Assembly: GCF_003018235.1 (NCBI RefSeq)
Contig: NZ_CP027439.1
Direction: 5' to 3' (one strand)
Source: Escherichia coli
GTDB taxonomy: Bacteria > Pseudomonadota > Gammaproteobacteria > Enterobacterales > Enterobacteriaceae
Length of the DNA: 64,000 nt
Positions 3,881 through 22,189 of this stretch are shown in pieces; position 1 is the first letter of the stretch, and every line of letters begins with the position of its first letter. The notes beneath the pieces were generated by a model, which did not search any database, was not told where the DNA came from, and worked only from the letters and a program-made list of their open reading frames with translations. Position numbers and translations under genes: made by a program.

Positions 3881-4936
3881 TTACGCCTTCAATGAGGCCA
3901 TATCGATCACAAAGCGATATTTTACATCACTCTTTAGCATCCGCTGCCAGGCCGTGTTAATATCCGAAATATTAATCAACTCAATATCAGACGTTATCTG
4001 ATGCTTTGCACAGAAATCGATCATTTCCTGTGTCTCCGCAATCCCACCAATGACCGAGCCAGCCACCGATTTTCGTCCTAAAATCAGCGGCGCGCTGTTC
4101 AGCATCGGATTCAAGTCTCCCAGATACCCCACAAGCACCAGTGTTCCGCTCAGCGCCAGCGTCGGAATATAGGGATTCAGATCATGCACATAAGGAACCG
4201 TATCGATAATCAAATCAAACTGGTTATGTGCTTCCTGCATCTGCTTTTCATCGGTTGAAATAACAATATGCGTGGCCCCCAGACGGCGAGCATCGGCCTC
4301 TTTGTTCGGCGAACGACTGAATAACGTGACTTCCGCACCCAGCGCTTTGGCTAATTTTATCGCCATATGCCCCAGACCACCCAACCCAACGACCACAACT
4401 TTGCTGCCCGGGCCAACATTCCAGTGACGAAGCTGTGACCAGGTGGTGATACCCGCGCACAGCAGCGGTGCTGCACCTTTTAAATCCAGCGTATCAGGTA
4501 CTTTGATAACGAATTTTTCGGTGACCACAATCTTGTCCGAATAGCCGCCATAGGTTGGCATATGGTCATGCCTGTCAATGTCGTTATAGGTTAAGGTATT
4601 GCCCTCTTCACAGTACTGCTCCAGCCCCTGCTCACAGGGCTTACAATGCTGGCAGGAGTCCACCATGCAACCTACACCGGCATAGTCGCCCACGCGGAAT
4701 TCGGTCACCGCCTTGCCAATCTGAGTCACTCGGCCAATGATTTCATGCCCCGGCACCATCGGATATTTTACACCGCCCCAGTCATTAAACGCATTGTGGA
4801 TGTCTGAGTGACAAACGCCGCTGTATAAAATCTCGATAACCACATCGTTATCGCGCGGATCGCGGCGAACAAAATTGTGTGGTACTAAATCCTCTTTCGC
4901 GGCAAAAGCGGCATAACCTTTCACATTTAAGGTCAT
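3881..4936 (-). CDS. Zn-dependent alcohol dehydrogenase (cinnamyl-alcohol/YahK-like group)
   Basis: GVCHSDIH zinc motif, GHEIIG, a CxxCxxC structural-zinc cluster (CQHCKPCEQG) and GLGGLGH NAD(P) motif. The start at ATG 4936 has GGAG 8 nt upstream. Confidence 0.85.
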   Translation of the reverse strand: MTLNVKGYAAFAAKEDLVPHNFVRRDPRDNDVVIEILYSGVCHSDIHNAFNDWGGVKYPMVPGHEIIGRVTQIGKAVTEFRVGDYAGVGCMVDSCQHCKPCEQGLEQYCEEGNTLTYNDIDRHDHMPTYGGYSDKIVVTEKFVIKVPDTLDLKGAAPLLCAGITTWSQLRHWNVGPGSKVVVVGLGGLGHMAIKLAKALGAEVTLFSRSPNKEADARRLGATHIVISTDEKQMQEAHNQFDLIIDTVPYVHDLNPYIPTLALSGTLVLVGYLGDLNPMLNSAPLILGRKSVAGSVIGGIAETQEMIDFCAKHQITSDIELINISDINTAWQRMLKSDVKYRFVIDMASLKA

Positions 4937-9823: not shown

Positions 9824-10600
9824 TTATGACAGGTTACCGGCGTAGACCTGTGTCTGGCCGCCGTCGATGGTAAGATTTATACCGTTGATAAAACTGCTGG
9901 CGTCGGATGCCAGGAACACGACGCCGTCCCCGATCTCATCAGCACGACCAACACGTCCGACGGGGATCTCCGCTGCACATTTGGCGGCGAAGGCTTCAAC
10001 CTCCTCCGGGGTCATACCCTGCACGGTTTCATAGCCTTCAGTCGGGATAGCCCCTGGACTGATAACATTCACGCGGATATTGCGTGTCTTGAGCTCAGTG
10101 GTCCAGACTCGCGCCATGCCGATAACTGCCGCTTTGGTCGCGGCGTAAGTCGTGTATTCCGGCAGACCAATAAAGGCGGTCATGGAGGACGTCAGAATGA
10201 TTGAACCGCCAGCATTCATAATGGGCAGCATGGCTTGTACGGTGAATAACTGCCCCTTAAGGTTGATGTTCAGCATGTTGTCGAAAAACTCTTCGCTCAC
10301 GTCCTCTAGTTTCTTGCCTATGTAGTAGCCGGCATTAGAGAAAATGATGTCCAGATGACCTTTTTCCAGCTGAATGACTGAGGCGACATTCACCATGTCT
10401 TCCTTGCGGGAGACATCGGCAACGATGGCACGGGCATTTGGGCCAATCTGTTTAATCGCCTCATCCAGGACGTCCTGGCGGCGGCCCACTATATAGACAA
10501 AAGCACCTTCTTCAGCAAGGCGCTTTGCGCCCCCCAGACCGAGTCCCGTTCCGCCACCCGTGACCAGTGCCACTTTACCTTTTAACGTTTGAACCGACAT
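9824..10600 (-). CDS. Classical short-chain dehydrogenase/reductase (3-oxoacyl-ACP reductase / glucose dehydrogenase-like)
   Basis: TGGGTGLG cofactor motif, NAG, catalytic YAATKAA, and PG motif. Confidence 0.9.
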   Translation of the reverse strand: MSVQTLKGKVALVTGGGTGLGLGGAKRLAEEGAFVYIVGRRQDVLDEAIKQIGPNARAIVADVSRKEDMVNVASVIQLEKGHLDIIFSNAGYYIGKKLEDVSEEFFDNMLNINLKGQLFTVQAMLPIMNAGGSIILTSSMTAFIGLPEYTTYAATKAAVIGMARVWTTELKTRNIRVNVISPGAIPTEGYETVQGMTPEEVEAFAAKCAAEIPVGRVGRADEIGDGVVFLASDASSFINGINLTIDGGQTQVYAGNLS

Positions 10601-13105: not shown

Positions 13106-13725
13106 GTGACATGTACGAAAACGCCCTTTGTGAAAACAAGACGGGATTCAGATTCATAACCCAGTCAGATATGTCTGCTCCTGACACTTAGCTGACTTTT
13201 AACGGGAGAACAGCCTGGCGGGCTTATATATACAGTTATCGCAATAATTTGCGTGATTTCCTGTGCTGGGGACAATAATCCGCTCAGCACAATAATCGTT
13301 CTTAATTAGTGCCCCTCATTCATCAATCCCTCTCATCTTCTCCGCAGATCCGAAAACCTCCAGAGTAGGATCTTGTCTCACCCTACCGGCGCTGCACACC
13401 ACGACAACACAAGATGTAGCGGCTCTGTCAACTGCCTTGGCTACCAGATGTTGTGTTTATCTCTTCGTTCTGTGAGGGGCGCTGCACGCCGGAAAACGGA
13501 GCTTTGCTCAGGGCGTAATCGTGCTACACTTCCGGAAAGTCGTGAATACGTGAAAAATCGGATCACCTGAAAACCGCCATCCGTTAATTTAATCCAGTGG
13601 TTATCAGGCTGCTAATTATCAGACAAAGAAAACATCATGGCAGGGAAAGTCCTGTGTGTGATAGTCAGGTGAGTTAGCGGTGGTGAGGTAATGATTGCGG
13701 TTTGTGATTATTTATTGGAAAAGGA

Positions 13726-14108: not shown

Positions 14109-15839
<1,731 letters not shown>

Positions 15840-16086
15840 CAGATATCAGCATTCACGGCTTGGGATGCGTGCCGTTTTACTGGCCAAACGATTGAGGAAG
15901 CTTAATGGTATGCCTTCCTCAAATCTTGATAATGGCAGTTGCTGGTCTGTACAACATGTATTGTGGACTGAGTGGAGGAAACAACGAAAATCCAGAGCCA
16001 GAATGGCATGCCCGGGTACCTAACTTTTTCAGATGCAGGGATGCGGACAGATCATAAATCTTCATGTAATGTTTCAGGAGTCAGTT

Positions 16087-16521
16087 ATGGAAAATATGAT
16101 GAAAACTATGCGTGAGTATTTCCCCACGCGAACAGTAGTGTTCGAACAGTCTCTGGATATGTTTGGTATCACCCGGGGTAAGGATGGGAAGCTCATATTT
16201 CCCCGTCATTCTGATAACCGTTTCCCGATCGGGCGTATCCGCAAACGTCTGGCAGCTTATGGCTGGCGCGGAGAACGTCTGAATCAGGAAGTAGCGCGTA
16301 TCGTCGCGGGTCCTGGTGTTCTTCCTGAAAGAAATGATTACAGCATATTTTTTCCTTACGGATGGGAACGTAACCAGCTTACCCCTGAGATGCGGAGAAT
16401 GTTTCCCCGGAAGACTGGTCGCCGCGTGCTGCTTATGCTGGATGAGCTCCATTATATTCATGACGCCGGGGAGCGTAAGTCGTTTTCACCAGAAAGTAAT
16501 GAAGCACCCGAGGTATCATGA
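16087..16521 (+). CDS. Hypothetical protein co-transcribed with the recombinase
   Basis: AGGAG lies 6 nt before ATG 16087. The stop overlaps the recombinase start (ATGA). No motif was recognised. Confidence 0.6.
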   Translation: MENMMKTMREYFPTRTVVFEQSLDMFGITRGKDGKLIFPRHSDNRFPIGRIRKRLAAYGWRGERLNQEVARIVAGPGVLPERNDYSIFFPYGWERNQLTPEMRRMFPRKTGRRVLLMLDELHYIHDAGERKSFSPESNEAPEVS

Positions 16522-17300
16522 ATTACCCTTCTCTTCCCGGACAGGCCTACGCCCCGGAAAAAGTGCATCTACCTATGGCCATCGATTACCCGGCAGCGCT
16601 GGCCCTGCGTCAGATGGCAATCGTCCAGGACGAACTGCCGAAATACCTGCTGGCCCCGGAAGTGAGCGCCCTGCTGCATTATGTCCCCGATTTGCACCGC
16701 AAGATGCTGCTGGCCACGTTGTGGAATACCGGTGCGCGCATTAACGAAGCGCTGGCCCTGACCCGGAGTGATTTTTCGCTGGTGCCACCCTACCCGTTTG
16801 TGCAACTGGCCACGCTGAAACAGCGGGCGGAAAAAGCGGCCAGAACAGCAGGAAGAACGCCTGCCGGCAGCCAGGCGCATCGCTTGGTACCGCTGTCAGA
16901 TAAACAGTACGTCAGCCAGCTGGAGATGATGGTGGCCACGCTGAAAATTCCCCTCGAACGCAGGAATAAACGTACTGGCAGAACAGAGAAAGCACGCATC
17001 TGGGAAATTACCGACCGCACGGTCCGTACCTGGCTCAGCGAAGCGGTTGAAGCGGCAGCGGCTGACGGGGTGACGTTCTCCGTGCCGGTGACACCGCATA
17101 CATTCCGTCACAGCTATGCCATGCACATGTTGTACAACGGTATTCCGCTGAAAGTGCTGCAGAGCCTGATGGGACACAAGTCAGTCAGTTCGACAGAGGT
17201 GTACACGAAGGTGTTTGCACTGGACGTAGCTGCGCGACATCGGGTGCAGTTCCTGATGCCCAGTGATGATGCTGTGGCTATGCTCAGGGGAAACACCTAA
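16518..17300 (+). CDS. Tyrosine site-specific recombinase (Rsd/ResD/XerD-like, 260 aa)
   Basis: The catalytic signature is intact: TGARINEAL (Arg), HTFRHSYAMH (HxxR), LMGHKSVSSTEVY (His...Tyr). The size and layout match plasmid multimer-resolution recombinases such as F ResD and Salmonella Rsd (from memory). Confidence 0.9.
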   Translation: MNYPSLPGQAYAPEKVHLPMAIDYPAALALRQMAIVQDELPKYLLAPEVSALLHYVPDLHRKMLLATLWNTGARINEALALTRSDFSLVPPYPFVQLATLKQRAEKAARTAGRTPAGSQAHRLVPLSDKQYVSQLEMMVATLKIPLERRNKRTGRTEKARIWEITDRTVRTWLSEAVEAAAADGVTFSVPVTPHTFRHSYAMHMLYNGIPLKVLQSLMGHKSVSSTEVYTKVFALDVAARHRVQFLMPSDDAVAMLRGNT

Positions 17301-17511
17301 GTGGTAAAACAACTGAAGATTACTCCAGTGTGGTCACTTAGCGATTGAGGCTAAGTTCCAGAGTGGTGGCGTTCAGTTATACCCAAGTGTGACAGGCTGA
17401 CGCGCCCGTCGGGCTTGTCCAACCCTTCGCCTGCTCAGATCCAAGATCTGAACAGACTCACGGTTTGCGCGGTGGGTCAACAAAATTAAATACGATCACC
17501 AGAAATATTTT

Positions 17512-17546
17512 CTGGACACTTTTTCCGATAGTGCCGAATTGTCCAG
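17512..17546. repeat. Inverted repeat CTGGACA-N21-TGTCCAG sharing the arm hexamers of the array motif
   Basis: CTGGACA at 17512-17518 and TGTCCAG at 17540-17546. The right half, GAATTGTCCAGG, resembles the array right arm GAATGTCCAGG with one extra T. Confidence 0.4.
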
Positions 17547-17614
17547 GTTGGAAAGCATTTTTTGTGCGTTGTTGAAGGGCCGCGACGAGTGGAGCAAGGT
17601 GACAAAAATAATGC

Positions 17615-17638
17615 TGGACAGAAAAACCTGAACGTCCA
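17615..17638 (+). repeat. Array site R0 (24-bp core-type motif)
   Basis: TGGACAGAA AAACCT GAACGTCCA. Confidence 0.75.
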
Positions 17639-18162
17639 ATATGGGGAAAGGATTACGTGACGGGGCGGGTTTGCTAGCAGTTCTGCGAACGTACCAGCGC
17701 ATCGAGGACTGGTAATGCCAGCAGGCTATTACGTCCGGGCTGGAAAATCGAGAGTTGCGATGATGACGAGGCAAGGGGATCGCAGACATTAACCTCTGCA
17801 ATAGAATATCTATTGCGTGATTTATTATAAATGTTATCCCTTTATTGTTTTCCAATTATCCCCGCAGTTGAAGAAATCAGCACTGAATAAAATTTTCAAA
17901 ATTTTATTCATGATGCTTACAAATAAATTAATGTAGATGAATCATCGGGATAGACTATTCTACATCAACTGCATTCTTAATTTTACGTCAAAATCAAGCG
18001 TTGCACTAAAATAAATCCTTACTAGAATAGCTATCCAGAAGAATCACCATGTATTCTTCAGTCTGACCCTCGGGCGCAGATTCTTGTTGTATTAAAATAT
18101 TGGGAAAATAAATCAGGAGTGAAAATGCAGTGACAGAGACACGTTACACAACGTCTGAAAGC

Positions 18163-18256
18163 AAAAAAGCCCTGAATAATCAGAGCTTTATTACTGGATT
18201 GGAAATGACGGCCATCAAATCCAATTCAAAACACACCAAAGGCATGTCCTCAAGTG
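18163..18256 (-). ncRNA. Candidate antisense sRNA (antitoxin) of module 1
   Basis: A minus-strand promoter reads TTGACG (18291-18286), 17-nt spacer, TATTAT (18268-18263). A minus-strand terminator has stem AAGCTCTGA/TCAGGGCTT followed by TTTTTT (plus-strand A run 18163-18168). The ends are approximate. Confidence 0.45.
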
Positions 18257-18339
18257 ATGAAGATAATAGAAAACTATTCAATCTACGTCAACCGAATGCC
18301 TGCGGTAACAATCCCAAAGCCGTTATCGGAGGTACGATT

Positions 18340-18441
18340 ATGTTGCCATTGCTCAACACGTTCATGAATGCCCCTCTTCTGAGTCAGGGGGCTACTATCC
18401 TGTTTCTTGGGCTTCTTATCCTTGCGCTCAAGAACCAGTGA
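18340..18441 (+). CDS. Candidate small hydrophobic toxin peptide, 33 aa (or 65 aa from in-frame ATG 18244)
   Basis: GGAGG lies 7 nt before the ATG. The product is MLPLLNTFMNAPLLSQGATILFLGLLILALKNQ, homologous to the 19340 peptide. A terminator hairpin (AGCTGGC-TTCG-GCCAGCT) follows. Confidence 0.5.
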   Translation: MLPLLNTFMNAPLLSQGATILFLGLLILALKNQ

Positions 18442-18475
18442 TCGCACTGAGCTGGCTTCGGCCAGCTTCTTTACT

Positions 18476-18499
18476 TGGATAGAATCACCTGAACGTCCA
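18476..18499 (+). repeat. Array site R1
   Basis: TGGATAGAA TCACCT GAACGTCCA. Confidence 0.75.
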
Positions 18500-18601
18500 G
18501 TCGGGCGCTAATTTATAATAAATGACCGTAGAAGGGCCATTTCTACGGCAAAGTTCTGGAGATGATAAAATAAGGGCCTTAAACAATAAAAGGGCTTGCT
18601 T

Positions 18602-19003
18602 ATGACACTGGACCAACTGCTTGAAATCCACGACTGCGCTGGGCTGAGCACCTATGAACAGGAAACAATTATATCTTTCATTAACCAGCGGCGAGGTGAC
18701 TTTGGTGTAAAAGCGTTTCCGGAAATTATGCCTCCAGTATCTTGCGGCTGGATCTCCAGAAGAACAAAACAACGTTCTCAGGAGCAGGCAGACGAAAATA
18801 GCTGGAATTATTATAAACAGAAGATTCAGGAATGGATAACGCTAATCGAATTGCATGAGGCATCACTTACTAGGGGGGAAAAGCTAAAGCGCTTTGTGGG
18901 AAAGCATAAATGGTGGTTAGGAGGCACTTGCGCAGTTATCGCATCAATTACAAGCACTGTGATAGCTAGCTGGATTCTTTCGTTATGGACTTGGGCTAAC
19001 TGA
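18602..19003 (+). CDS. Hypothetical tail-anchored membrane protein (133 aa), module 2
   Basis: Single ORF filling the R1-R2 interval, with a C-terminal hydrophobic helix (GGTCAVIASITSTVIASWILSLW). The stop abuts R2. Confidence 0.5.
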   Translation: MTLDQLLEIHDCAGLSTYEQETIISFINQRRGDFGVKAFPEIMPPVSCGWISRRTKQRSQEQADENSWNYYKQKIQEWITLIELHEASLTRGEKLKRFVGKHKWWLGGTCAVIASITSTVIASWILSLWTWAN

Positions 19004-19004
19004 C

Positions 19005-19028
19005 GTGACAGAAGCTGCGTTACGTCCA
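19005..19028 (+). repeat. Array site R2 (most divergent centre)
   Basis: GTGACAGAA GCTGCG TTACGTCCA. Confidence 0.55.
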
Positions 19029-19164
19029 AGTTGATAAAAAGTTGTTATCCACAGAGAACAGGGCGGTCATCCGGCGGGTTCAATAATATGATATTATTAC
19101 AGCACCTTAAAAAATAAGGATTGCGGACGGATGATATATTGATAAAGGATACTCATGCGTGTAA

Positions 19165-19262
19165 AACGCAAAATACCCTGAGTAATCAGGGTATTAAACG
19201 CGGAAAAGTAAAGGTTGAGCGCTTTACATTTTCCATTCACACCAGAGGCGTGACTAAATCTA
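19165..19262 (-). ncRNA. Candidate antisense sRNA (antitoxin) of module 3
   Basis: A minus-strand promoter reads TTGACG (19297-19292), 17-nt spacer, TAGAAT (19274-19269). A minus-strand terminator has the perfect stem AATACCCTGA/TCAGGGTATT followed by TTTTGCGTTTT. The ends are approximate. Confidence 0.45.
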
Positions 19263-19339
19263 AAATTGATTCTACGGCAACGTTCAATCTACGTCAAATC
19301 GCCAATGGTTTTCCTGTTATGAAAATTACCGGAGGCTTC

Positions 19340-19450
19340 ATGTTGTTAACCATCATCGACACCTATCTTCATGCTTCATTACTGACACAGATACTGGTAA
19401 TCCCGTTTATCTGTGCGGTGGTGTGGGCGGTAAAGAAAATCCGGGTATAA
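19340..19450 (+). CDS. Candidate small hydrophobic toxin peptide, 36 aa (or 66 aa from in-frame GTG 19250)
   Basis: GGAGG lies 5 nt before the ATG. The product is MLLTIIDTYLHASLLTQILVIPFICAVVWAVKKIRV. A 12-bp-stem terminator follows (AACATGGCTGGC...GCCAGCCATGTT). Confidence 0.5.
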   Translation: MLLTIIDTYLHASLLTQILVIPFICAVVWAVKKIRV

Positions 19451-19503
19451 CTTAAACATGGCTGGCTGAGAGGCCAGCCATGTTCAGTGAGTTTTGTTTC
19501 GAA

Positions 19504-19527
19504 TGGACAGAATAACCTGAATGTCCA
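19504..19527 (+). repeat. Array site R3 (consensus copy)
   Basis: TGGACAGAA TAACCT GAATGTCCA. Confidence 0.8.
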
Positions 19528-19645
19528 AGTTTGCAAGGAATTGTGATCGTACTACAACCAGTGTCAACCTTCCTATAATGCAGATAATCTTCTATAATTT
19601 CTTTTAATTCTGTGGCGATGTCATTAAGGAAAAGAGGTATTATTT

Positions 19646-19903
19646 ATGGGAAATAAACACATCAGCGCCAGTGAAGCTAAAAAGATTAGTTCTTCAGTGA
19701 TACCTGATGCAGACAAAACACTTGATATGATATTTGGAGGAATAAAGCTCCAAGCAAGATTGGGCCAGACATCCTTTATTTATCCTGTCCATGAAAACAT
19801 TCTTGAGCAAGTGGTCAAGGTTCTAAGGGAATCTGGTTATAGGATTAACTCATCGAAGGCTAATGAGAATAACAAATTTATTATTGAAATTAGCTGGCAG
19901 TGA
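19646..19903 (+). CDS. Hypothetical soluble protein (85 aa), module 4
   Basis: AGAGG lies upstream of the ATG. Two perfect TATAAT hexamers lie at 19574 and 19593. A terminator (AAGCCAC...GTGGCTTTTTTT) sits just before R4. Confidence 0.55.
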   Translation: MGNKHISASEAKKISSSVIPDADKTLDMIFGGIKLQARLGQTSFIYPVHENILEQVVKVLRESGYRINSSKANENNKFIIEISWQ

Positions 19904-19961
19904 AATAGAATCCGCTTTGTCTTTATTTTACCCTTGAAGCCACCCATTAGTGTGGCTTTTT

Positions 19962-19985
19962 TTGACAAGATTACCTGAATGTCCA
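19962..19985 (+). repeat. Array site R4
   Basis: TTGACAAGA TTACCT GAATGTCCA. Confidence 0.7.
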
Positions 19986-19998
19986 GGTAACGCGGGGA

Positions 19999-20445
19999 TT
20001 AATGAGAAGAATAGGTAGTTGGTATATTTAGCTTGAGTCCAATCTCCTTTATGAGATTGTAGGTATTTTCCTTACTGTTGCCAGCAAGTATTGAGGTGAT
20101 CTCATTAAGGTTTTGTGCTGCACCAAGAACTTCACCCTTTGATGGTACAAACTTCATACCTAAATAGCTTCTTTTTAGGCTACCAGGCAAGGCTGCATAC
20201 TTTGCCATTAACTGAGAAGCAGCATCTTTCAAATCGTGGATGGTTTCATGATTAGCTCTGAAATTTGTGATCGTCGCTTGCTCACGTAATAAAAGCGCTG
20301 TAATCCTCCCTAATTGTTCTCTGAATGATATATAAGGCTCAATGAATCTTTTTGCGATGAGTTGACCAACAACAAAAACGGTTACGCCGGTCAGAACAGT
20401 TACGGCAGCAGACGAACTCATAATTGTACCTAGTGACTGAATCAT
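19999..20445 (-). CDS. Hypothetical N-terminally membrane-anchored protein (148 aa), module 5; reversed relative to the sites
   Basis: One N-terminal TM helix (AAVTVLTGVTVFVVGQLIA) followed by a helical soluble part. It is the only long ORF between R4 and R5. Confidence 0.55.
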   Translation of the reverse strand: MIQSLGTIMSSSAAVTVLTGVTVFVVGQLIAKRFIEPYISFREQLGRITALLLREQATITNFRANHETIHDLKDAASQLMAKYAALPGSLKRSYLGMKFVPSKGEVLGAAQNLNEITSILAGNSKENTYNLIKEIGLKLNIPTTYSSH

Positions 20446-20482
20446 GGGGGTTATCCTATCTGGAGGGCAACAGCCTGTCTAC

Positions 20483-20506
20483 TGTACAGAAAATGCTGTA
20501 TGTCCA
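20483..20506 (+). repeat. Array site R5
   Basis: TGTACAGAA AATGCT GTATGTCCA. Confidence 0.6.
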
Positions 20507-20562
20507 GTCTGTGCTGGAATTATAATGGCAACCATGATCATCACAGGAAGAACGAGTAACAG

Positions 20563-21042
20563 ATGGCAACTGCGTGGGTGGATGTGGCTGATAATGCCGT
20601 AAAAATAGGTTTGGGGTCGTTGTTGACTATTTTAGGGGGGTGGCTGACTCTTAAGCTAACACAAAAGCACGAATTAAAAAAAGAAGCGGCAGTACAGGGA
20701 TTAAAAGATAAAGAAATAAAAACCAAACGATATGTGGAGTTTCTGACCTTGTCTCAATCTCTCATGCAAAAATATTTATATGAGCAGTGTGAAGCAAATA
20801 ACGATGATTATCTTGCCTATCTTCGCATACATAATGAGATAACGATCACGTCAGGTTTAGCCATAAGGAAAGCAGCATTTAAACTCCAGTTTGATGTTTC
20901 TACTTTCATTTTCTACAACAAAATACACGACACAGAACTCATTAATGCACTGAGGGATAAGGCTAGAAATTCTGTTTCCATGTTTCAGGCCATTGTGAAT
21001 GAGGAAATCTGCAACGGAAAGTTTGGCACAGCAAGCCAGTAG
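20563..21042 (+). CDS. Hypothetical N-terminally membrane-anchored protein (159 aa), module 6
   Basis: N-terminal TM helix (IGLGSLLTILGGWLTL), a Lys-rich linker, then a helical domain. The stop lies 4 nt before R6. Confidence 0.55.
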   Translation: MATAWVDVADNAVKIGLGSLLTILGGWLTLKLTQKHELKKEAAVQGLKDKEIKTKRYVEFLTLSQSLMQKYLYEQCEANNDDYLAYLRIHNEITITSGLAIRKAAFKLQFDVSTFIFYNKIHDTELINALRDKARNSVSMFQAIVNEEICNGKFGTASQ

Positions 21043-21045
21043 CGC

Positions 21046-21069
21046 TGGGCAGAATAACCTGAATGTTTA
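21046..21069 (+). repeat. Array site R6
   Basis: TGGGCAGAA TAACCT GAATGTTTA. Confidence 0.7.
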
Positions 21070-21118
21070 ACTGCCGGAGGAATTAACCGAGGGGCGTGAA
21101 AAGGCCGCTTACGCGGCC

Positions 21119-21229
21119 TCAGTTTTCTCTTGAACTCCTGAAGTCTATGTAGTCGATAAACTCAAGAATATAGTAGGCAATCACGCCTGTACCTACATAG
21201 ATAGCTCCGAATATCAGTGACTCACTCAT
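21119..21229 (-). CDS. Candidate 36-aa hydrophobic peptide
   Basis: AGGAG lies 9 nt before the ATG. The product is MSESLIFGAIYVGTGVIAYYILEFIDYIDFRSSREN. The stop is followed by the hairpin GAGGCCGCGTAAGCGGCCTTTT. The ORF is below the 60-aa cutoff of the ORF track. Confidence 0.4.
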   Translation of the reverse strand: MSESLIFGAIYVGTGVIAYYILEFIDYIDFRSSREN

Positions 21230-21266
21230 TGAAGTGTACTCCTGAATAACACTCTATTGCACATAG

Positions 21267-21491
21267 CCGCAAGCCAGATCCCTCGCATCCAGTATAACCG
21301 GACTTACTCCACTGCAGTTTCAGAAACAACTACGTCTACAGGAAGCCAGACGATTGATGTTACGAGGTTCAGATGCCAGTATTGCCGGGTACAACGTTGG
21401 ATATGAAAGCACAAGTCAGTTCTCCCGGGAATATAGACGTTACTTCGGCTATCCCCCCAAAAAGGACATTGCACGATTACGCGAAACATAA
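21267..21491 (+). pseudogene. 3' remnant of an AraC/XylS-family regulator gene (last ~74 codons)
   Basis: The translation [56 protein letters not shown] is the second HTH of AraC-type regulators. There is no start codon or N-terminal domain. Confidence 0.65.
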
Positions 21492-21527
21492 ACATCTTTG
21501 ACATTCGCGACGTCCGACCAGCCGAAC

Positions 21528-21551
21528 AGGATAGAACACCCTGAACATCTC
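21528..21551 (+). repeat. Array site R7 (terminal, right arm degenerate)
   Basis: AGGATAGAA CACCCT GAACATCTC. Confidence 0.5.
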
Positions 21552-21653: not shown

Positions 21654-21941
21654 TCACCTCATTCGTTCGCTGGCAAGATTATAAACATCACTACGTTCAC
21701 GTTTCCCTACAGCAACAACAGCGATAACTAATTGATCATCAATCACCTGATAAACCAGGCGGAAGCCAGACGCACGAAGTTTAATTTTGTAGCAATCCTT
21801 TATCCCACGCAGTTTTGCTGATGGGATATGTGGATTTTCACTGCACTTCTTTAGCTTTTTAGCAAACTGCTGCTGAATTGCCTTATCCAGTTTTTGCCAT
21901 TCTTTCAGTGCATCTTCCCTGAATCTGACTGTGTAAGTCAT
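21654..21941 (-). CDS. stbE: RelE/StbE-family mRNA interferase toxin
   Basis: 95 aa. ALKEWQKL...LRG.KDCYKIKLR.SG.RLVYQVID...VGKRERS.VY matches RelE closely. It overlaps the upstream antitoxin gene by 4 nt. Confidence 0.9.
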   Translation of the reverse strand: MTYTVRFREDALKEWQKLDKAIQQQFAKKLKKCSENPHIPSAKLRGIKDCYKIKLRASGFRLVYQVIDDQLVIAVVAVGKRERSDVYNLASERMR

Positions 21942-22189
21942 AGGTAGCTATCCAGATCTACATCGTGCAGCTTCTGGTTGCTGCGTTCGGCGACCAGATT
22001 AACCAGTTCCTGATCGTCTAGGGCATCGAGCATCTTTTCATACAGTTCTGCGGGGACACAGTAAAAGGCGGGCTGGTTACGGTTCAGAATCGCGACTGGG
22101 TAACCATCACCGGCACTGACTGTCGCCATCGGGTTTTTTTTCAGTTCGCTGACACTGGCGCTAGTGTCACTCAGAATAATGTGGGGCAT
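21938..22189 (-). CDS. stbD: Phd/YefM/StbD-family antitoxin
   Basis: 83 aa with a Phd-type N-terminus (SVSELKKNPMATV). It is translationally coupled to the toxin gene. Confidence 0.85.
   Translation of the reverse strand: MPHIILSDTSASVSELKKNPMATVSAGDGYPVAILNRNQPAFYCVPAELYEKMLDALDDQELVNLVAERSNQKLHDVDLDSYL

Follow-up and report, generated by a model that had tools for sequence, protein, structure and literature searches.

The stretch of DNA considered here, 64,000 nucleotides of one strand of contig NZ_CP027439.1 from the Escherichia coli assembly GCF_003018235.1 (henceforth the window), belongs to an F-like conjugative plasmid whose nearest relative is pDEC5B-4 of E. coli O55:H7. Within it, a conserved element that we call the array leader is followed by a series of 24-bp sites, all pointing the same way, which divide the DNA into short cassettes. 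The leader and the sites are:

17370-17575, + strand: array leader, a conserved element of about 200 bp before the first site of every array (alignments, blastn)
17513-17545, + strand: leader core, TGGACAcTTTTTCCGATAgtgccgaatTGTCCA; invariant alignment columns, with pattern matches in all array loci
17615-17638, + strand: site R0, TGGACAGAAAAACCTGAACGTCCA; its left arm is part of the leader, and homology with pDEC5B-4 and the Klebsiella plasmid L002 switches here
18476-18499, + strand: site R1 (motif match, junction comparison)
19005-19028, + strand: site R2, degenerate, GTGACAGAAGCTGCGTTACGTCCA; position weight matrix (PWM) score 15.8-20.6, homology border at position 9
19504-19527, + strand: site R3; the pDEC5B-4 leader is fused directly to its right part
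19962-19985, + strand: site R4 (motif match, junction comparison)
20483-20506, + strand: site R5; AATGCTG-type centre, which always accompanies cassette 5
21046-21069, + strand: site R6 (motif match, junction comparison)
21299-21322, + strand: decayed ninth site, CGGACTTACTCCACTGCAGTTTCA (CGGACTTACTCC...), recognised by flank homology
21528-21551, + strand: site R7, degenerate terminal site, AGGATAGAACACCCTGAACATCTC; PWM score 15.5-22, with a separate homology block starting directly after it

An earlier note on this DNA had listed eight such 24-mers, and their sequences, coordinates and common direction are all confirmed on the + strand. Its inventory overlooked the decayed ninth site and the conserved leader, and a degenerate copy that it thought possible near 18035 is not borne out by a weight-matrix scan, in which no site-like sequence scores there. 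The consensus TGGACAGAAnnACCTGAAyGTCCA, of which R0 to R7 are direct copies, is expected zero times by chance; six of the eight sites have at most three mismatches to TGGACAGAANNNCCTGAAYGTCCA, compared with none in 100 shuffles. R2 and R7 are weaker copies (PWM 15-22), yet they lie exactly at homology borders with other plasmids. No comparable site was recovered when the other 59 kb of the 64-kb window were scanned with the weight matrix. The array had also been described as AT-rich relative to both flanks, which holds on the left (guanine-cytosine content of 0.33-0.47 versus 0.51-0.58) but not clearly on the right (0.40-0.48). Terminator-like hairpins do lie 5' of three sites, that at R1 being reported by a terminator tool and those at R3 and R4 being evident on reading the sequence.

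Cassette exchange and the crossover point

By a cassette we mean the DNA that begins at position 10 of a site and ends at position 9 of the site after it. The window then contains the following cassettes and open reading frames (ORFs):

17624-18484, + strand: cassette 0; small hydrophobic ORF at 18340-18441, antisense promoter and terminator at 18291-18166
18485-19013, + strand: cassette 1; ORF of 135 amino acids (aa) at 18596-19003
19014-19512, + strand: cassette 2; small ORF at 19343-19450, antisense promoter and terminator at 19297-19172
19513-19970, + strand: cassette 3; 85-aa ORF at 19646-19903
19971-20491, - strand: cassette 4; 148-aa ORF at 19999-20445
20492-21054, + strand: cassette 5; 159-aa ORF at 20563-21042
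21055-21307, - strand: short cassette 6a, which starts with GGAATTAAcCGAGGGGCG...GGCCGC-loop-GCGGCC; 36-aa ORF at 21119-21229

The intervals between sites are indeed cassettes, as had been supposed, although what had been counted as a sixth single-gene module is composite, because the decayed ninth site at 21299-21322 that splits it has a cassette end as its left flank. This flank is identical to the cassette end found before two sites elsewhere (L005:8994 and L126:2388), and the homology with both breaks off inside the left arm.

To what extent do these cassettes move independently of one another? We compared about 140 related loci and gathered 153 unique site contexts, which fall into 124 junction types. 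A megablast search with the 5-kb region matched 3,525 plasmids, none of which covers 80% of it, and local alignment against the retrieved loci reveals homology blocks that start and stop in sites. Fifteen cassette ends are joined to at least two different downstream neighbours and 12 cassette starts to at least two different upstream neighbours. In pDEC5B-4, for example, the leader and the recombinase gene in front of it (resD, see below) are fused straight to cassette 3, amounting to a precise loss of cassettes 0-2, and a Klebsiella IncFIA/FII plasmid has the order cassette 0, foreign cassette, cassette 5. Cassettes 3-5 recur at 99.3% identity on the unrelated backbone of the IncX1 plasmid p573-5, while a Citrobacter IncFIC plasmid has an 85% identical copy of cassette 1 placed after another cassette, in a block that ends at R2 position 9; the same cassette comes first in the IncX1 array L120. 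Cassette 0 is found behind three different left neighbours (in the window, L002 and L125) and cassette 3 behind five, cassette 5 follows a different cassette in Klebsiella L002 and in contigs L015 and L017, and cassette 6a occurs alone in Salmonella IncX1-like plasmids. The modules are thus mobile, as the earlier note had proposed, being found in other orders, other neighbourhoods and other replicon types (IncF, IncX1 and others) and always bounded by the motif. Arrays comprise up to 11 sites at a median spacing of 542 bp, and in leader-bearing loci the orientation of strong sites equals that of the leader in 83 cases out of 83.

Isolated sites exist as well. Serratia chromosomal contigs (L019, L026) and Enterobacter loci (L009, L031) harbour high-scoring single sites or two-site mini-arrays that bound one or two uncharacterised genes, with no leader or ResD-family gene within the 8 kb examined. 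The F plasmid itself (L004, NC_002483) has, at 9970-9984 and 297 bp after resD, a left half-site plus centre (TGGACAGAACAACCT) without a leader, which looks like a relic of an array. Viral contigs yielded four site matches and no leader match, ruling out a phage feature.

The site logo reads TGGACAGAA / t n A C C T / G a A y G T C C A, that is, a left arm TGGACAGAA, a 6-bp centre and a right arm ending in GTCCA. Plasmids with the recombinase that we propose below as cognate carry the near-symmetric sites TGGACAGAA-CGACTG-TTCTGTCCA and TGGACAGAA-ACACTA-TTCTGTCCA, and the layout is therefore best described as 9-6-9. For a crossover test we considered pairs of junctions in which one flank is at least 95% identical and the other unrelated. 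Pairs that have only the right flank in common differ by 50 mismatches at site positions 1-9 and 12 elsewhere, the exceptions being the hypervariable position 11 and one point variant, whereas pairs that have only the left flank in common differ by 128 mismatches at positions 10-24 and 17 elsewhere (Fisher p = 5e-22 for the split). Positions 1-9 therefore belong to the upstream cassette, and the centre and right arm to the downstream cassette. These comparisons place a single crossover between positions 9 and 10, at the boundary between left arm and spacer, in an interval 2 bp wide (AA, positions 8-9). Arms of 9 bp, a 6-bp centre, symmetric variants and a crossover at the arm/spacer boundary all agree with the tyrosine-recombinase-type core site that the earlier note had suggested.

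The variable centre (for example, TAACCT versus AATGCT) always stays with the downstream cassette. Because it never stays with the upstream side, we suggest that either the overlap is very short or one strand pair would be exchanged and replication would complete the process, as in integrons or in XerC action at cer; a symmetric two-strand exchange over a 6-bp overlap is disfavoured because the centre would then end up on either side. At one junction (L126:589), positions 10 and 11 resemble a patchwork of two presumed parents. Beyond the 24 bp, weaker conservation continues rightward (GGnnGnnGnGGnATTAA), the start of cassette 6a being an instance of a common right-flank element of sites, and cassettes frequently end in GCCAG(C/T)AG(A/C)(A/G)C. 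As single strands, the sites would fold into hairpins with stems of 5-6 bp (-2.3 to -4.2 kcal/mol).

The leader and the recombinases beside it

The leader has an invariant core, TGGACAnTTTTTCCGATA-N9-TGTCCA, which is located 70-160 bp ahead of the first site, contains the two site hexamers at a spacing of 21 bp and has an invariant CGATC and the palindrome CCAGAAATATTTTCTGG in front of it. It is conserved in seven genera, with copies in E. coli, Klebsiella, Citrobacter, Izhakiella, Pantoea, Hafnia and on IncX1 plasmids. Searching PLSDB (72,556 plasmids) with blastn recovers it in 1,047 plasmids at 1,060 places, i.e. one per plasmid, and among 5,426 complete E. coli genomes it is present in 326 (6%), at 337 places on plasmids and 5 on chromosomes. 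A promoter scan of the leader found no promoter-like (Pc-type) site.

On IncX1 plasmids the leader abuts, in divergent orientation, the gene for a 295-aa ResD-family protein with 46% identity to the ResD of the window, a junction conserved in about 500 plasmids. Seven relatives of this protein at 63-68% identity, from Cronobacter, Erwinia, Phytobacter, Salmonella and metagenomes and on different backbones, all have a divergent leader (7/7), accompanied by one to five sites in leader orientation and no rfsF, the site at which ResD of F is known to act. Adding three further loci (L023, L036 and L127) brings the count to ten of ten clade members, 63-100% identical to one another, with divergent leader and sites. 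By comparison, leader and sites are absent in all three relatives at 45-48% identity, one of which has rfsF. Given this strict co-occurrence (10/10 versus 0/3), we propose that the IncX1-type clade, to which WP_001278243 belongs, most likely provides the cognate enzyme of the arrays. The left part of the window's leader resembles the stretch directly upstream of the recombinase start in a Cronobacter plasmid, and the window probably retains only the intergenic region of a lost IncX1-type gene.

What the window does encode in front of the leader is a different recombinase:

16518-17300, + strand: resD, F-type ResD tyrosine recombinase, 86% identical to ResD of the F plasmid (Pfam Phage_integrase)
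16033-16521, + strand: 162-aa ORF overlapping the resD start, where F has ccdAB
13346-13373, + strand: degenerate rfsF-like site, AGATCCGAAAACCTCCAGAGTAGGATCT; left arm intact, right arm with 3 mismatches to the pattern in PMC8299605

The resD product had been described as an intact tyrosine recombinase, and it does possess the R/K/HxxR/H/Y residues and the Phage_integrase domain. To regard it as the array's own enzyme, as had also been implied, fits less well with its being an F-type ResD that has its own site and most of whose loci are without the motif. The 162-aa ORF has no family match; the same gene is present in pDEC5B-4. The established ResD site, rfsF, is AGATCCGNAA-N8-TTNCGGATCT, a 10-8-10 arrangement (PMC8299605), and is a known hot spot for plasmid fusion and gene-set swaps (PMC8299605, PMC8004404). 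That the array motif might simply be rfsF is ruled out by its different sequence and spacing and by the presence of rfsF elsewhere on the same plasmids. No array site in the window fits rfsF, the sole rfsF-like sequence being that at 13346, which is probably the site of the window's F-type ResD. It lies about 3 kb upstream of resD with IS3-family ORFs (about 14794-15831) in between, and ResD/rfsF resolution of this plasmid may be impaired. Perfect rfsF copies are located upstream of the resD operon in L002, L003, L119 and F.

Among metagenomic F-type resD loci with enough downstream sequence, 68 of 74 are missing the TGGACA site, and ResDs with and without arrays are mixed throughout the tree, some of them being nearly identical, so that there is no dedicated ResD clade for array-bearing loci. 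Because of its different site, the predominance of site-free loci and these scattered tree positions, we do not consider the F-type ResD dedicated to the array. The mcr-10-linked 'xerC' was also considered as a relative and rejected: it is a 331-aa protein, and pMCR10_090065 is without sites.

The surroundings of the leader vary further. Directly before the first site, several plasmids have a perfect DnaA box, TTATCCACA, in a conserved GATTATCCACAGAAAC.GGGGATAA stretch (L023 at 4540-4580, L012 at about 660-700, L135 and L137) that bears a likeness to the DnaA-box region of F ori2. Between resD and leader, on the opposite strand, plasmids of Klebsiella, Citrobacter, Enterobacter and Salmonella (L002, L003, L117, L118, L130) carry a gene for an Rpn-family (YhgA-like) recombination-promoting nuclease, which may be common backbone or functionally linked. 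In the Citrobacter plasmid pCf.1-6 (L125, 2201-7135), a Tn5053-like transposon (TniA/B/Q plus serine recombinase) is inserted in res-like repeats between a divergent serine resolvase gene and the leader, in keeping with the 'res hunter' habit of this transposon family; the insertion identifies the place as a region bound by a resolvase. In Hafnia paralvei (L007, 2201-4631), a full resD, leader and three sites are followed 14 bases on by a 5'-truncated second resD copy spanning residues about 92-261, which suggests that the array inserted into resD or that there was a duplication around resD.

How the array might have been built

Taking these observations together, we suggest that site-specific recombination assembled the region as a cassette array, with the enzyme most likely belonging to the IncX1-type ResD-family clade, a reading to which we assign a probability of roughly 0.7. 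The basic locus would consist of a recombinase gene, a divergent leader and a single site, probably a multimer-resolution system that gathered cassettes. An excised circle would carry one complete site, and its insertion into a resident site would add one cassette plus one site; catalysis and the circular cassette intermediates are steps that we infer. The array in the window might be dormant, serviced in trans or cross-recognised by F ResD. It is about an even bet that the phenomenon is broader, i.e. that there is a second, integron-independent mode of cassette capture in which this clade inserts and excises self-expressed, largely toxin-antitoxin and abortive-infection cassettes at a single point, with enzyme-less arrays serviced in trans and cassettes flowing between IncX, IncF and other plasmids.

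A number of observations sit uneasily with a cassette array maintained by this clade. The window encodes no IncX1-type clade member. Moreover, in about half of IncX1 plasmids the IncX1-type gene is truncated at one common point, and still their arrays differ, so that either a trans-acting enzyme may be required for recent shuffling or homologous exchange between arrays may account for it. For diverse arrays without an intact enzyme in cis, it is possible that the enzyme acts in trans, that F ResD cross-recognises the sites or that homologous exchange is responsible. Position 11, one base past the crossover, carries 0.03 bit of information and differs even where right halves are identical in every other respect, a pattern that one clean cut leaves unexplained. 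The semi-conserved flanking motifs indicate that the functional site may be longer than 24 bp, and the sites resemble dif more than random sequence does (11.6/22 versus 5.5 +/- 2.1). Finally, whatever protein may act at the sites is deduced here from sequence comparison. In the truncated lineage (L005, L120, L128 and about 250 others), about 115 bp of the 5' end of the recombinase gene are left, dinQ and a serine resolvase gene having replaced the remainder.

Could the enzyme be closer at hand? If the adjacent F-type ResD recombined TGGACA sites besides rfsF, the window would be a self-contained integrase plus array. In at least 17 of 22 contexts, a ResD-family gene or remnant does precede the leader by no more than 3.5 kb, and in E. 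coli, Klebsiella, Citrobacter, Leclercia and Hafnia the gap between the end of resD and the leader is 45-215 bp; F ResD and the IncX1-type enzyme have 46% identity, the left arms of rfsF and the array sites agree at 6 of 10 bases, including the inner C-GAA beside the cut, and the arrays of F-like plasmids are diverse. We nevertheless regard this as unlikely given that rfsF differs in both sequence and layout and is retained upstream of resD in array-bearing plasmids, that site-free resD loci predominate and intermingle with array-bearing ones in the tree, and that the left part of the leader resembles a leftover upstream region of a lost divergent recombinase gene. A catalyst supplied by the host seems less probable still. 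In this scenario XerC and XerD would act on the sites, perhaps by XerC-only exchange as at cer or phage CTX, making the array an enterobacterial counterpart of pdif. The crossover is located where XerC would cut, arrays are maintained and vary on plasmids that have no intact tyrosine recombinase of their own, and the distribution is confined to Enterobacterales, all of which have Xer. Read as 11-6-11, the mean dif match falls into the top 0.35% of random 28-mers; the matches of 8/11 and 7/11 given in the earlier note apply to R6 but not to the family as a whole, where the XerC arm averages 6.0/11 and the XerD arm only 5.5/11, above background and far from known Xer sites. Against Xer, the outer hexamers form one inverted repeat (TGGACA/TGTCCA), implying one protein species rather than a XerC/XerD pair, and the same hexamers also occur in the leader; leader and sites are strictly tied to one plasmid recombinase clade, and the sites are all direct where those of pdif alternate.

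It is also conceivable, if quite improbable, that no dedicated recombinase is involved and that the motif is an operator, terminator or protein-binding element repeated at gene boundaries, with mosaicism arising by RecA-dependent recombination alone. At 24 bp the sites are near the minimum length for RecA-mediated exchange, they often follow terminators, their flanks have further semi-conserved motifs, and whole-segment homologous exchange between arrays surely occurs too. Under this model, however, we would not expect breakpoints to fall at one position instead of being spread across the shared identity, nor orientation to be absolute, nor a single leader per plasmid to stand beside a specific recombinase clade, nor the motif to have the anatomy of a recombinase core site down to its symmetric variants. 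We give least credence to a serine recombinase as the catalyst. Such genes abut the leader in four loci (L117, L130, L125, L018), in three IncX1 loci (L005, L120, L128) they are found some 1 kb upstream of it, and a crossover interval of just 2 bp would suit them. But they fall into three or more distant families (23-47% identity), most arrays, the window's among them, lack such a gene, and res-like repeats of their own accompany these genes to the left of the leader; the crossover, furthermore, is off the dyad centre of the site.

Cargo, significance and relation to known systems

Cassette genes occupy both strands. Cassettes 0 and 2 have the same layout, with a minus-strand promoter-like site (TTGACG-17-TATTAT / TAGAAT) and terminator, a predicted antisense RNA of about 100 nucleotides and a small hydrophobic ORF at the 3' end. 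The combination of such an ORF with an antisense promoter and terminator suggests that both are type I toxin-antitoxin units; a relationship of their small ORFs to DinQ or DqlB was rejected, there being no sequence similarity. The cargo proteins of the window have no matches in Pfam, NCBIfam or PADLOC, and an Rfam scan of leader and cassettes returned no RNA family, only two sub-threshold matches. In other arrays, annotated genes between mapped sites include those for HigBA, ToxN/AbiQ, an Abi-family protein, a SLATT protein, an HNH endonuclease and DinQ-like toxins. A gene fragment separates the decayed ninth site from R7: a 45-aa ORF (21354-21491) whose sole match is to the C-terminal helix-turn-helix of AraC-family regulators (HTH_18, E = 4e-6). 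Directly past the array, on the - strand, lies a pair consisting of a RelE/StbE-type toxin and a Phd/YefM-type antitoxin (21654-22189); an E. albertii contig (L029) has the same pair beside TGGACA sites, and in a Salmonella Poona plasmid (L129) it lies downstream of the one TGGACA site mapped there.

To our knowledge, integrons have so far been the only well-established cassette-array system in Enterobacteria, with pdif modules as an Acinetobacter analogue. The earlier note was aware of no such array on F-like plasmids, and a search of open-access text, including motif strings (figures and subscription journals being outside its scope), likewise located no published description. What we report seems to be an integron-like system of gene capture, present on more than a thousand enterobacterial plasmids, that has not been described before. 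If so, it would explain part of the fine-scale mosaicism in IncF and IncX maintenance regions and provide a route for toxin-antitoxin, abortive-infection and other small genes between unrelated plasmids; leader and sites would be a new feature for annotation pipelines, and a compact 24-bp site with a recombinase of about 270 aa would be a candidate genetic tool.

Some known elements can be set apart readily. The motif is not the terminus of a miniature inverted-repeat transposable element or insertion sequence, the sites being direct only, with one array per plasmid, unrelated single genes between them and no transposase involved. A shufflon (Rci/sfx) was rejected since no two sites form an inverted pair and the cassette genes are unrelated to one another. 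As the earlier note had recognised, the sites are not attC, having no RYYYAAC/GTTRRRY core motifs and weak hairpins, and the array is neither CRISPR nor a set of iterons.

The Xer sites cer and psi and the CTX integration site resemble the present ones in combining a core site with about 100-200 bp of conserved accessory DNA on the left-arm side, and in a crossover at the boundary of left arm and spacer that would be consistent with the exchange of a single strand pair and its resolution by replication. The arrays differ in that no ArgR, PepA or ArcA boxes are recognised, the outer arms are symmetric and the associated recombinase clade is plasmid-encoded. The pdif modules of Acinetobacter are likewise small plasmid modules between short tyrosine-recombinase core sites with a 6-bp centre, occurring in varied plasmid contexts and frequently carrying toxin-antitoxin cargo. 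However, pdif sites alternate whereas those described here are direct throughout, and pdif are clear XerC/XerD sites whereas here dif is matched at about half of positions; our arrays, in addition, have one leader and a linked plasmid recombinase clade. With ResD/rfsF of F and RsdB/crs of pSLT the arrays have in common the recombinase family (46-86% identity), a locus in the maintenance region beside partition and replication genes and a probable ancestral role in dimer resolution. Yet rfsF is single or paired and does not bound cassettes, while the sites considered here have other arms in a 9-6-9 layout and come in arrays with a leader.

The integron-like logic that the earlier note saw holds for array layout, orientation and crossover, but does not extend to IntI, attC or Pc. 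In a comparison with NCBIfam integrase_gron, whose cut-off is 265 bits, the window's ResD reaches 63 bits and the IncX1-type enzyme 54, and the IntI-specific insertion is not found in ResD. Instead of folded attC sites of 57-141 bp there are 24-bp core sites of double-strand type, and the cassettes, in either orientation, are self-promoted instead of depending on a Pc-type promoter, none being detected in the leader. Against these differences stand a recombinase gene divergent from the primary site and leader region, sites in the same orientation, mostly single-gene cassettes, one fixed crossover that leaves each cassette with a split site, and a cargo of toxin-antitoxin and phage-defence genes as in chromosomal integrons. 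The arrays represent a real and probably new system that is mechanistically integron-like without being an integron.

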